From positions 1 to 35,426 of the IMG/VR virus record IMGVR_UViG_2609460354_000004: a DNA stretch of 35,426 nt, one strand, 5' to 3'. Shown here piece by piece: positions 18,394 to 21,334 of this stretch. This DNA is from a virus. Taxonomy: Duplodnaviria; Heunggongvirae; Uroviricota; Caudoviricetes. The position numbers and the translations under genes are program-made. How positions within the stretch are numbered: the first letter of the stretch is position 1; each line of letters begins with the position of its first letter. The notes beneath the pieces were generated by a model, which was not told the DNA's origin, did no database searches, and saw only the letters and a program-made list of their open reading frames with translations.

Positions 18394-18681
18394 TTACCGC
18401 CGTAAGTGCTCCGGCTTCCTCCACTGGTAAGTATTTTTCGCGCTCTCCCTCCGTTGTTGAGAACGGCGACGGTATGCCAGCAACTCAAGAACTCTGGTTC
18501 GTATGTTGCGCATATCAACGCCGTTAAGCTCAATACCGTCACGGCGCATCACCTCAGCCACCACACGCGCGTAATTTTCAGCGGTGACTGTATCCGGCTG
18601 CGCGGCCTGTTCGTCAGCCAACTGGCTGATTCCACCAGCACAGCGGATTAATCGCAGTATTTCAGATTCGGTCATTATCAT
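18394..18681 (-). CDS. hypothetical 95-aa protein translationally coupled to island terS
   Basis: ORF start overlaps the terS2 stop. MIMTESEILRLIRCAGGISQLADEQ... with a basic C-terminus (RRRSQQRRESAKNTYQWRKPEHLRR). No family recognised. Confidence 0.45.
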   Translation of the reverse strand: MIMTESEILRLIRCAGGISQLADEQAAQPDTVTAENYARVVAEVMRRDGIELNGVDMRNIRTRVLELLAYRRRSQQRRESAKNTYQWRKPEHLRR

Positions 18682-19163
18682 GCCTGTTTTGCGACCTCAT
18701 TCACTACGTCATTTTTTACCATCCGGCTGATAATCTGATTACGCAAATCGTCAATAATTGACTGCACTCTGTTTACTGCCATCGGTTTAAGCCCGGCATC
18801 ACGTGCCAGAATATTGGGGAGTTTTGCCAGTTCCTCGCTTACGATTTCCCCCCATATAGCCATCTCTTTTCGCACATCATCGGCGGGTATGAGTTGCGCC
18901 GTTTCCTGTTCGAACTTGAGGCGCTCACGTTCGGACTGATACCAGGCCTTACGGTCATGTGGCTCCATTTCTTCCAGTGATGCCGGAACGGGAAGATCAA
19001 GAAAACAGGTCAGAATGTCAGTCACCCGATAGAGTTTTAGCTTGTCATGCCCTCCGGCTGGCTGGATGTTTTTCAGCCTTGCCGCCGCAGTCTGACGACA
19101 TATTCCCGCTATCGCCGCCAGTTGATTAATGTTCAGCATCAGATTTTTCAGTTCTCGATCCAT
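18678..19163 (-). CDS. island terminase small subunit paralog (Nu1-type HTH)
   Basis: 161 aa from MDRELKNLMLNINQLAAIAGICRQTAAARL.... About 70% identical by eye to the prophage terS at 29834-30328, but the last ~20 residues are unrelated. The track ORF start at 19250 is an upstream extension. Confidence 0.8.
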   Translation of the reverse strand: MDRELKNLMLNINQLAAIAGICRQTAAARLKNIQPAGGHDKLKLYRVTDILTCFLDLPVPASLEEMEPHDRKAWYQSERERLKFEQETAQLIPADDVRKEMAIWGEIVSEELAKLPNILARDAGLKPMAVNRVQSIIDDLRNQIISRMVKNDVVNEVAKQA

Positions 19164-19315
19164 ACCCGCTCCAGAATGTTTTAAACATGCATCTTGCGAA
19201 CAACTTTCAGAAGAGGTCAAAAAATGCGCTATATGTTGAGCATAAAACAAGCAAAATTAACATACCAAAAATAAAAACACTTAAAATTCAATATCATAGA
19301 AAGATGATGATGACG

Positions 19316-19390
19316 AATGAAAATGCAAAAACTAGCCTTTTTCCGCGCCGCTCCCGCCCCGTGGCAGACCACCCCACCGGGAGGACCCGT
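19316..19390 (-). other. cos-like conserved element, copy A (candidate cosN/cosB)
   Basis: One of three copies of a ~75-nt motif. Its minus-strand core ACGGGGCGGGAGCGGCGCGGAAAAAGG resembles the lambda cohesive end GGGCGGCGACCTCGCGG as recalled. Lies 150-230 nt upstream of terS2. Confidence 0.5.
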
Positions 19391-19416
19391 AAAAAAAGGC
19401 GGCTATCGCCGCCCTT
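19391..19416 (-). terminator. rho-independent terminator after island capsid gene
   Basis: Minus strand: GGGCGGCGATAGCCGCC followed by TTTTTTT, immediately after the capsid2 stop (19421). Confidence 0.55.
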
Positions 19417-19420
19417 GTTG

Positions 19421-21334
19421 TCATGCTCCACTCGATTTCAGTAATCCGCGATAGTCGAGGGCCGCGACACCTGCATCTATGCGCACCTTCCAGGCGACGC
19501 CATCAACAGTAAAGCCCTCCTGCTCCTCAAGATATGGCGTATCAATACCATCAAGATAAGCGACCTCTATCGTGTCCATACCCTTCGCCGCTGCCACATA
19601 CCACTCCTTGTTATTGGCTTTATCAAGACGTGGCTCAACGATTACCTCCGCCATATCTTTCACCACGTTAATGATGCCGGGGTTCTGATTGATAGTGCCC
19701 ACGCCATCAACCGGAAAGAGTGATGACGATGACAGAATGGCGCGATGTGCGGCAGACTCCAGCGCGGCGGGGACCAGGACAAATGCGGGGGTAATATTCA
19801 GCGAATCGCCGTTAGCGTCTTCCTGGAGGCGCATCAGCTTACGGGCTTCGTTAAGCCCCTCCATGTCCATATCCTTCGCAATAAGATTTTTATGATCGGC
19901 ATGGAATAACGCTTTACCATCCGTAAACTTGCCGTTGCTGGTTAACAGGAGATAAACCAGATTGCCAACTGTTCTGGCAGCTGCGCGTCCCATCGCCATG
20001 GGGATTGTAGTTAACTGGGTCAGGTCATCGTTGATAATGGCCTGACGGGTAACGGAAAAAATATTCCCGTACGTGGCCAGCGCAATAGGTACACCTTTAT
20101 CGCTAGTGGTGATGTATTTATATTCCGCGCCTTCCGGTACTTTATCCAGCTTTGAAAAACCATTCAGACCAACGCGCTTTGCTTCATGAAAGTTTGAAAG
20201 CGAACCGGTACGCGTCCATTTCTGGAACGTTTCGCCGCTGTCCTGCCAGCCTTTCAGTACTGATTTTTCAGCGCCACCAGCCAGAATATGAGAAAAATCG
20301 CTGCTGCTGTGTGTAAAAGCCGCATTAACAACCTGCGAGCGATTAATAAAACCGCTCACAGTGATACCACGATCAACCAGTGATGCCTGGGCCATTTCAA
20401 AAAGGCTCATCATCGCGTAAGGGTTGCCTCGTTCAGGGCGTTCATACCCAAGACGGGAATAAAGCCCCTGACGAATTGCATCACCTGTTATGTTTCCGTT
20501 TCCGGCATAGATATGAGGCGGGGTATTTTTATTGGATGGCGTGGACTCGCGCCCCAGCTCGTTCAACAGCTTTTCACGGGCCATTTCCGGTGTACATGAT
20601 GCATCTTCCAGACACGCCATTTTGATCCCGTCGTAACGACTGCCGAACAAGCTAAACACTTCACTTATTCCATTGATGCGCTTCTGTTCATTACCAGCAA
20701 TATTTGCCGCTCCCTGTGGCGGTGTAATCATTCCTTTAATGGTTTCCGGCATATGTAAAAAATCTCCTGTGCGTTTCGATTCAATTCGCGCCATTGCTCT
20801 GACGGATGGCAACAATTCATCAGCAAAACCGTGCTTAAGGCATTCTTTCCCATCCATCCAGGTTTCATCCTCCAGCATGGCGGTAATTTCCTGTGCTGAT
20901 TTGCCCGTTTTTCTGGCATAAGCAGGGATTAACACGGTTTCCACCTTATCCAGCAAATCAGCATAATCACGCATATCGCCAGCATTTCCGCCAGAGATAC
21001 CCCACGGTTTATGGATCATCATCATGGCGTTCTCCGGCATAACAACACGATCGCCAGCCATTGCGACAACCGAAGCCATTGAAGCCGCAACACCATCGAT
21101 ATAAACCGTAATGTCTGCCGGATGATTCCGTAGCAGGTTATAGATGGCGATGCCTTCAAACACATCACCACCTGGTGAATGGATCCTCAGATTGATATGT
21201 GAAACATCGCCAAGGGCTTTCAGGTCTTCCGCGAACTGCTTTGCAGTAACACCGAAGCCGCCAATCTCCTCATAGATAGATATATCCGCCGCTCCGCGAA
21301 CATCCGCCGCCTTAATGGTGTACCAGTGATTCAT
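19421..21334 (-). CDS. island-encoded prohead protease-major capsid fusion protein (paralog of the prophage capsid gene)
   Basis: 637 aa. ClpP-like N-terminal region (...HSPGGDVFEGIAIYNLL...VDGVAASMASVVAM...MIHKP...) and an HK97-fold capsid region, collinear with the protein at 13215-15173 and clearly homologous by eye (identity not counted). Confidence 0.85.
   Translation of the reverse strand: MNHWYTIKAADVRGAADISIYEEIGGFGVTAKQFAEDLKALGDVSHINLRIHSPGGDVFEGIAIYNLLRNHPADITVYIDGVAASMASVVAMAGDRVVMPENAMMMIHKPWGISGGNAGDMRDYADLLDKVETVLIPAYARKTGKSAQEITAMLEDETWMDGKECLKHGFADELLPSVRAMARIESKRTGDFLHMPETIKGMITPPQGAANIAGNEQKRINGISEVFSLFGSRYDGIKMACLEDASCTPEMAREKLLNELGRESTPSNKNTPPHIYAGNGNITGDAIRQGLYSRLGYERPERGNPYAMMSLFEMAQASLVDRGITVSGFINRSQVVNAAFTHSSSDFSHILAGGAEKSVLKGWQDSGETFQKWTRTGSLSNFHEAKRVGLNGFSKLDKVPEGAEYKYITTSDKGVPIALATYGNIFSVTRQAIINDDLTQLTTIPMAMGRAAARTVGNLVYLLLTSNGKFTDGKALFHADHKNLIAKDMDMEGLNEARKLMRLQEDANGDSLNITPAFVLVPAALESAAHRAILSSSSLFPVDGVGTINQNPGIINVVKDMAEVIVEPRLDKANNKEWYVAAAKGMDTIEVAYLDGIDTPYLEEQEGFTVDGVAWKVRIDAGVAALDYRGLLKSSGA

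Follow-up and report, generated by a model that had tools for sequence, protein, structure and literature searches.

The window analysed here is a stretch of 35,426 nucleotides (nt) of viral DNA (Caudoviricetes; positions 1 to 35,426 of the IMG/VR record IMGVR_UViG_2609460354_000004), in which the large terminase subunit gene (terL) of a lambdoid prophage is split by an island that we read as a phage-inducible chromosomal island (PICI). The island carries its own genes for a small terminase subunit (terS) and for a protease-capsid fusion protein. The relevant genes all lie on the minus strand and, read in that direction, the window is a lambdoid late operon, in which cos, terS and the ATPase half of terL are followed by ~10.8 kb of lower-GC DNA and then by the nuclease half of terL. 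Located 3' of this second half are a small head-completion gene and the genes for the portal, a fusion of ClpP protease and major capsid protein, a cement protein and the tail (Table 1). The prophage, which is the carrier and presumptive helper of the island, is called the helper below; its other late genes are intact in the window and in strain B1-56.

The DNA between the two attachment (att) sites of the island contains the protease-capsid fusion and terS, and it lacks genes for portal, TerL, tail and lysis. The original prediction for this DNA had described an island with its own terS and protease-capsid genes but no portal or terL, that is, a satellite borrowing the portal, terL and tail of its helper. 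Its coordinates were right, domain and gene content confirm the description, and the satellite reading is upheld by the island's own integrase and att sites and by its PICI gene order. The prediction was silent on the position of the island inside the helper terL and on its two cos sites. The island shows several of the features by which Fillol-Salom et al. (2018) recognise PICIs, with a one-strand integrase gene (int), a helix-turn-helix (HTH) protein of the HTH_17/phrog_66 type, a Bro-N protein, DUF4222, a D5-type primase and a single-stranded DNA-binding protein (SSB), as well as a size within ~10-15 kb and iterons in the described position. Judged by this gene content, the island is a discrete Gram-negative PICI, and it must borrow portal, TerL and tail from a helper. 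Capsid homologues are found in 21 of 29 reference PICIs (PMC10111431).

Integration site and integrase

The island is co-oriented with the late operon and measures 10,828 bp from core to core. At both junctions, the sequence CTGGATG divides terL from island sequence. This crossover core also stands at the junctions of the other five composites (prophages holding the island) that were inspected, with single-base irregularities at both junctions of the O121 locus (L006), and across loci it can be written as (C/T)TGGATG, 6-7 bp. The N-terminal terL fragment, annotated as a partial terminase in RefSeq relatives, closes with SRIASFWM before a stop codon provided by the island, and the C-terminal fragment opens with MEGPAAAY. 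The split falls at the boundary between the two Pfam domains, ATPase and nuclease, of GpA-type terminases. When the 10,828 bp were deleted in silico, a single unbroken open reading frame (ORF) of 700 amino acids (aa) was obtained, and a 600-nt probe over the rebuilt junction was 99-100% identical to the intact terL of phi458, mEp460, Ayreon and PhiR40_1, which are isolated lambdoid phages of 42-45 kb. The terL of the cdtI type matches the probe across the att site as well, with ~80-81% identity. The unoccupied site, seen as an uninterrupted match to the junction probe, occurs in ~1,930 of 5,426 complete E. coli genomes.

The integrase together with an att arm was detected in 90 of these genomes, many of them Shiga toxin-producing E. 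coli (STEC); the share of complete E. coli genomes in which a prophage terL contains the element is ~1.6%. In 88 of the 90, the attL-junction probe was covered to at least 80% and the integrase gene abuts the terL fragment. All six composites inspected have the island in terL, including an O157 Stx1a prophage, a Qin-like prophage of O121, EC42405 and a partly deleted prophage, and nine more loci on viral contigs show the same adjacency of integrase and terL. The insertions extend over at least three terL allele classes and over different prophages; the proteins encoded by the flanking alleles have only 68-72% identity, yet all share SRIASFWMEGP. The finding of 88 out of 90 copies at the same core of diverged alleles therefore indicates repeated, directed integration.

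Outside E. coli, where one genome per species was searched, full-length relatives of the integrase were at most 41% identical. The 12 top loci that were checked all lie beside tmRNA, tRNA-Ser or tRNA-Gly and none beside a terminase gene. Because close relatives of the integrase were not found there, the association with terL cannot be extended beyond E. coli. Both att arms (18100-18140 and 28725-28740) carry TTTATCGCTT, ~100-110 bp either side of the core; these repeats are possible arm-type integrase sites, in place of the doubled TGTATTGC motif of a published integrase clade that is discussed below. No terminator-like site was found between the terL fragment and int.

Capsid protein, TerS and cos sites

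Aligned over their full length, the protease-capsid proteins of island and prophage are 58% identical, and a single gap, of 29 residues, falls between the two domains. In a comparison of 61 unique PICI-borne and 10 unique helper-borne proteins of this kind, identities were 52-61% between islands and helpers, at least 59% among islands and at least 78% among helpers, and the linker from protease to capsid domain was shorter in islands (45-58 aa) than in helpers (79-90 aa). Where the linkers differ, the helper protein is rich in Pro and Ala, and this segment is probably flexible. The best full-length match to the island protein in 50,697 phage genomes reached 57%, and the best-matching phages were of the helper types. 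Between island variants, the ratio of nonsynonymous to synonymous substitution rates (dN/dS) was 0.13-0.18 for capsid and terS genes, and identical island capsid and TerS proteins recur in unrelated strains. On these comparisons, island capsid protein and TerS belong to satellite-specific lineages under purifying selection. The two gene pairs had originally been called diverged paralogs. The divergence stands, with alignments at 68% (TerS) and 58% (capsid) identity, whereas a local duplication does not, since the island copies are satellite-borne lineages that stand apart from every helper and phage copy.

The ORF of the island terS spans 18678-19250 on the minus strand, with the likely start ATG at 19163. 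Island and prophage TerS are 68% identical over 151 aa (E 4e-74). The two can be aligned up to about residue 150; from there on, the tails of ~11-13 residues are unrelated (VKNDVVNEVAKQA for the island protein, TEAGADDEEELQQEE for that of the prophage). Divergence is also higher at residues ~105-125, and a central segment, RKAWYQSERERLKFEQETAQLIPA, is identical in both. The best phage matches of island TerS belong to the mEp460 group (66-71%), with alignments that always end at about residue 150, and the TerS of a second helper type, that of the O121 and EC42405 prophages, is 32% identical to it. Over the last 14 residues, all 24 island copies are neutral and all 18 helper copies, which represent three types, have a net charge of -4 to -8. 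By extrapolation from lambda gpNu1, a member of a different family, the acidic tail at the extreme C-terminus of TerS may be what contacts TerL. It had been claimed that island TerS keeps the N-terminal HTH region and has an unrelated C-terminal tail; the tail does differ systematically, but homology spans ~150 of the 161 residues and is not confined to the HTH region. A search of island TerS against PDB chains gave no sequence similarity, in a set that should include the structures of Rpp proteins, the packaging proteins of EcCICFT073-type PICIs, if these have been deposited. The gene that follows cos1 codes for a full-length DUF1441 TerS homologue, in an arrangement that is analogous to that of rpp without placing the protein in the Rpp family.

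An element of ~85 nt with the cosQ-cosN layout of lambda is present three times, before the prophage terS, before the island terS (cos1) and before the island capsid operon (cos2). The two island sites have the same orientation and flank the island capsid gene. The cosB of cos1 is 77% identical to that of the resident helper, and cos1 itself has its best phage matches in the mEp460 group (77-83%); in islands without terS, the cosB of cos1 is 80% identical to the cos of the Stx1a helper. Downstream of cos2, 150 nt of cosB share 93-94% identity with the corresponding region of the O121 and EC42405 prophages. Over 204 nt, cos2 matches phages cdtI and Tritos with 94.6% identity, and the deposited genomes of both phages begin exactly at GGGCGGGAGCG, the predicted cosN cut. 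The cohesive end of 12 nt that is predicted for cos1 (GGGCGGGAGCGG, within 19343-19362) differs in one base from that of cos2 (21879-21898) and the helper cos (30498-30517), GGGCGGGAGCGT. The palindrome in the helper cosB has a perfect 12-bp stem (ACCACTGTAATA-GATTGA-TATTACAGTGGT). This segment of ~30 nt is the most variable part between helper cos and cos1, is absent from cos1 and cos2, and is a candidate for the recognition site of TerS.

In the remaining part of the island, a terminator-like hairpin (27189-27209) follows the AlpA-like gene. The small genes of the regulatory zone include Icd-like and YlcI/YnfO-like genes according to the RefSeq annotation of a near-identical strain. In the Bro zone, 25883-25955 (+) matched the SymR antitoxin RNA of Rfam below the threshold, with 35 bits versus a gathering score of 61 (E 0.0015); the immunity RNAs in the Bro zone of published PICIs belong to families other than SymR. 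The primase shares 87% identity with its counterpart in 11capE, a published PICI. The GGTGAACAGT iterons, which occupy the position of the PICI origin of replication described in PMC6092414, are a candidate origin, and an 81-aa ORF lies between them and the SSB gene. The late zone has the order cos2, orf69, protease-capsid gene, cos1, terS and orf95. Homologues of orf95 are kept across island variants (5434-5718 in L005 and 5583-5864 in L006), and in islands without terS the homologue follows cos1 past a spacer of ~150 bp, roughly in the place of rpp in EcCICFT073. No PDB sequence match was found for orf95, and Pfam and PADLOC were uninformative. GC-rich hairpins with T-runs stand immediately upstream of cosQ at 19398-19413 (cos1, after the capsid gene) and near 21930-21960 (cos2, after ssb), and a further one lies between cos2 and orf69 (21649-21665); these hairpins resemble intrinsic terminators and would delimit the modules of the late zone. 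Outside the island, an ORF of 230 aa (30900-31592, +) lies in DNA of 37% GC that separates the prophage cos from the lysis genes. It is on the other strand from the late operon, gave no match in Pfam or PADLOC and is likely a moron.

Table 1. Features of the prophage late operon and of the island in the window, in late-operon order, with the helper capsid pseudogenes of two other composites
Feature	Position	Strand	Details
Helper cos	30330..30551	-	cosQ-cosN 30489-30551; cosB with 12-bp-stem palindrome 30431-30460
Helper TerS	29834..30328	-	164 aa; acidic tail DDEEELQQEE
Helper terL, N-terminal fragment	28839..29834	-	331 aa; GpA_ATPase, Pfam PF05876, E 1.5e-72
attL crossover core	28842..28848	-	CTGGATG; terL side ...TCATTCTGGATG / island side TAGGGTACATT...
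Island tyrosine integrase	27439..28677	-	412 aa; Arm-DNA-bind_3, Phage_int_M, Phage_integrase
AlpA-like HTH / excisionase-regulator	27223..27426	-	67 aa; HTH_17 (weak), phrog_66
Bro-N / anti-repressor-like protein (PICI Bro zone)	26586..27164	-	192 aa; PF02498, E 7e-20; phrog_2593
DUF4222 gene	24731-25030	-	5' of primase gene
Primase-helicase	22917..24734	-	605 aa; D5_N/DUF5906/Pox_D5
Iterons GGTGAACAGT	22725..22914	.	4-5 copies, directly 3' of primase gene; repeat families D6, D7, D12, D14
SSB	21965..22387	-	140 aa; PF00436, E 7e-16
cos2	21700..21932	-	cosQ-cosN 21870-21932; cosB-like region; no terS behind
orf69	21331..21540	-	phrog_4934; overlaps capsid gene start; kept in many related PICIs of same capsid family
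Island ClpP-like protease / major capsid fusion	19421..21334	-	637 aa; CLP_protease, Phage_capsid_4
cos1	19164..19396	-	cosQ-cosN 19334-19396; cosB; directly upstream of island terS
Island TerS homologue	18678..19163	-	161 aa; DUF1441/phrog_141; neutral C-terminal tail
orf95	18394..18681	-	phrog_1561; start overlaps terS stop
attR crossover core	18014..18020	-	CTGGATG; island ...TTACTTCTTC / terL side CTGGATGGAGGGTCC...
Helper terL, C-terminal fragment	16904..18016	-	370 aa; GpA_nuclease, Pfam PF20454, E 4e-83
Helper portal and protease-capsid fusion	13215..16767	-	Phage_portal_2; borrowed or rivalled by island
Helper protease-capsid fusion	13215-15173	-	
Helper capsid pseudogene, L005 (E. coli O157 FDAARGOS_293)	259-2237		Carrier is a Stx1a-encoding prophage
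Helper capsid pseudogene, L006 (O121 RM8352)	408-2435		

Proposed mechanism and alternatives

We consider it quite probable that the region is the late zone of a 10.8-kb PICI lodged inside terL of an mEp460-like lambdoid prophage, its carrier and presumptive helper, and that the island acts as follows. On induction, late transcription of the helper would pass through terS and the 5' half of terL into int and alpA. Excision of the island would rebuild terL, so that, as we propose, packaging of the helper would be gated on excision of the satellite. The island would replicate from its own primase and iteron origin, the helper TerL would cut and package island concatemers at the island cos sites, and the helper would supply portal and tail. 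With an mEp460-like helper, cos1 would be recognised with island TerS, either as the cognate TerS or, like an Rpp, in mixed complexes with helper TerS, while with a cdtI-like helper the mimicry by cos2 would make island TerS dispensable and open the island to packaging by a second helper family. Most likely, the capsid protein of the island is built into heads together with that of the helper or takes its place.

Several observations weigh against this reading. In two STEC composites (L005 and L006), the helper protease-capsid gene is a pseudogene, with a frameshift in one and an internal stop in the other, while the island capsid gene is intact, and some composites may be dead ends for this reason. 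The island variants of O157 and O121 are devoid of terS; therefore, TerS is not essential to the lifestyle of this family. In the EC42405 island, an island-type TerS stands beside a cosB that is 93% identical to a helper-type cosB, which weakens the case for cleanly distinct TerS/cosB specificities. No covariation of TerS HTH residues with the variable cosB segment was observed, the EC42405 island having the same TerS type and a different cosB. Since cos1 and cos2 are 2.5 kb apart, a double cut would part a 2.5-kb capsid segment from the 8.3-kb remainder. An exact search for the predicted attP junction in IMG/VR viral and JGI metagenome contigs gave no match, a result that is uninformative for a rare element, and the analysis yielded no evidence, from experiment or from sequence, that the island excises or is packaged.

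The pseudogenes and the missing attP junction could also be understood if the insertion were an accidental dead end, in which terL has been knocked out, the prophage is a decaying and non-inducible remnant, and the island terS and capsid genes are without a current role. In the same sense, the helper of UK_Dog_Liverpool is deleted downstream of the island. We regard this explanation as improbable, because the copies sit at the same terL core in at least three diverged alleles and in different prophages, the other helper late genes are intact, and a published PICI of the same layout excises after induction (PMC10111431). That the island genes themselves are nonfunctional remnants, which the original prediction had named as one way in which it could fail, is contradicted by the low dN/dS and by the identical proteins shared by unrelated strains. 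The other way, in which the second terS and capsid genes would belong to a tandem second prophage, could be suspected from phage-type structural genes next to prophage DNA. However, the unit is discrete and only 10.8 kb long, with an integrase of its own and with att sites that lie within a gene, it contains PICI-type regulatory and replication zones and none of the portal, terL, tail and lysis genes, and it occurs alone at clpS-cspD. Because the same backbone is found there with a different integrase, we take a tandem prophage to be ruled out.

Two further explanations concern what the island proteins do. As in the original prediction of a satellite that redirects size and specificity, and by analogy with Ccm of SaPIbov5, the capsid paralogue might redirect assembly to small heads that fit a single 10.8-kb genome, with TerS switching the packaging specificity. 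The satellite-only capsid lineage, at most 61% identical to helpers and at most 57% over full length to proteins of the 50,697 phage genomes, with its shorter linker and purifying selection, would agree with such a role, and besides the small capsids made by Ccm in SaPIbov5 there are those of PmCI172, which also has a capsid homologue (PMC8569155, PMC6092414). Nevertheless, we find small heads rather doubtful. In EcCICFT073, deletion of the capsid homologue left the interference with phage lambda unrelieved (PMC6092414) and the DNA of the island is packaged in phage-sized heads (PMC6739421), and PICI capsid genes have been reported to be dispensable for helper-assisted transfer (PMC10111431). 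With 43.3 kb, four island copies come to 97% of the length of mEp460 (44.5 kb) and to 92% of that of cdtI (47.0 kb), so concatemers would fit normal heads without any redirection of size. The Pro/Ala-rich linker resembles a flexible tether more than a size-determining scaffold, and a triangulation number cannot be read from the sequence or model of a monomer.

As for TerS, the island protein could behave like an Rpp, mixing with helper TerS through the central helix, blocking the helper cos and steering the complex to cos1, with TerL contacted through the tail of the helper subunit. This option is favoured by the loss of the acidic tail, seen in all island TerS in comparison with the three helper types and in phage alignments that stop at about residue 150, together with the identity of the central segment. 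In addition, the order cos1-terS mirrors cos-rpp, and Rpp has been proposed to derive from a TerS without the TerL-binding C-terminus (PMC9026076, PMC6739421). It is disfavoured because island TerS is full length (161 versus 164 aa, and not 30-40 residues shorter as in Rpps) and has no similarity to solved structures in the PDB; moreover, binding of TerL by the acidic tail of DUF1441 proteins is extrapolated from lambda gpNu1. An Rpp-like role is thus a candidate worth keeping, though not the explanation that we would expect to hold. The PICI embedded in terL, dependent on the packaging machinery of its helper, remains the preferred interpretation of the locus.

Relation to known satellites

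PICIs inside late genes of lambdoid prophages have been described as helper-embedded PICIs (HE-PICIs; Tommasini, Mageeney & Williams 2023, PMC10111431). That survey reported 14 sites in nine genes and a single integrase clade, delimited by at least 400 bits to the integrase of 11capE, with an attP in which doubled TGTATTGC motifs lie ~81 bp upstream and ~132 bp downstream of the attP centre (PMC10111431). The founder, Eco567.11capE of E. coli NRG857c, has the same four zones as our island (integration, Bro, replication and late) and a late-zone capsid gene of its helper's type. The island also shares the defining situation of HE-PICIs, being inside a prophage late gene and co-oriented with it, with an attP that lacks a replacement sequence. 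In contrast, its integrase is only 25% identical to that of 11capE, with 86 bits, far under the 400-bit cutoff of the survey, and the doubled TGTATTGC motif gave no match, with up to one mismatch, in either att arm. The target is a terL of the GpA family, whereas the A-gene sites given in the published supplement text are Terminase_1:132 and :245/246; neither the label 'GpA' nor the k-mers of the island arms occur in the published HE-PICI att files, and no later report of further HE-PICI sites was found in the literature searched.

Composites of a published type, C:CLP_protease:110, were recognised on five IMG/VR contigs of 24-58 kb (L112, L113, L117, L122 and L146). In these, an island whose integrase resembles that of 11capE (52% identity) interrupts the capsid gene of the prophage at about residue 110, and the protease-capsid gene of this embedded island shares 80% identity with the island gene of the window. 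Viral contigs of 40-57 kb with such an 80%-identical gene were also considered as true phages with island-type capsids, and this was rejected since gene order places the 80% copy inside the island. The terL-type integrase, for its part, pairs with two capsid variants, one with 92% or more identity to the island capsid of the window, accompanied by terS, and another with 62% identity, which has no terS and keeps the orf95 homologue.

E. coli PICIs of the EcCICFT073 or Rpp type (PMC6092414, PMC6739421) resemble the island in the order int-alpA-pri, in a cos1 and a cos2 whose cosQ and cosN are phage-like, in a packaging-specificity gene placed directly 3' of cos1, in a late-zone capsid homologue and in their reliance on the TerL, portal and tail of the helper. 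They differ from it in that this gene codes for an Rpp of 139-154 aa without the TerL-binding end and not for a full-length DUF1441 TerS homologue. Furthermore, the cos sites of EcCICFT073 have no recognisable phage cosB, whereas the cosB regions of the island are 77-93% and 93-94% identical to those of two helper types, and the helpers of the EcCICFT073 type have lambda E/D heads instead of heads built from a ClpP-capsid fusion. Of the two cos sites of EcCICFT073, only cos1, next to rppA, is needed, and its authors asked why some PICIs have two (PMC6739421).

Most of the backbone recurs in a PICI of the EcCIIHE3034 type at clpS-cspD, which is ~96-97% identical to positions 137-8568 (67%) of the 10,822-nt island query, a portion that includes terS, capsid, both cos sites, SSB and primase. 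There, the integration module is different, with integrases that are 22% identical, and the site, which is that of the reference PICI EcCIIHE3034, is chromosomal and intergenic and not a prophage gene, so that the backbone has no surrounding prophage. SaPIbov5 is likewise a cos-packaged satellite that encodes a homologue of the major capsid protein of its helper; the redirection of size and shape by its Ccm was shown by experiment, and what our island has is a diverged, conserved capsid homologue, a protease-capsid fusion 52-61% identical to those of helpers. Capsid-forming PICIs (cf-PICIs) also combine a PICI backbone with phage-type head genes. They have the whole module of capsid, protease, portal, connectors, TerS and TerL, of which the island has only the protease-capsid fusion and TerS.

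These comparisons allow a broader reading, which we put forward tentatively and do not expect to hold in all its parts, of a dual-helper, helper-embedded satellite that is independent of the HE-PICI integrase clade. In this scheme, an integrase of tmRNA/tRNA lineage would have converged on the SRIASFWM|EGP hinge of GpA-type terL, which is common to at least three families of lambdoid helpers, including Stx1a phages. The second cos would be a copy of that of a second helper family, cos2 mimicking the cdtI type outright, and cos1 would be a diverged mEp460-type cos served by a tail-less, Rpp-like satellite TerS. The satellite-only protease-capsid lineage would represent a partial step toward capsid-forming PICIs. 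Lodging in late genes would then not be confined to one integrase clade and would have evolved at least twice. Since the target is terL, the one gene that the satellite cannot do without, packaging of helper and satellite would both be locked until the satellite excises. The match of each cos to a different helper family would offer a testable answer to the question raised in 2019 about PICIs with two cos sites. Moreover, the TerS without acidic tail and the short-linker protease-capsid protein are candidates for dissecting how packaging and assembly are hijacked in lambdoid phages of the ClpP-capsid type, among which are Shiga-toxin phages. Thus, the helper-embedded layout as such is already known, and what appears to be new in this island, as far as its sequence allows us to say, is the unrelated integrase, the terL target and the two helper-matched cos sites.

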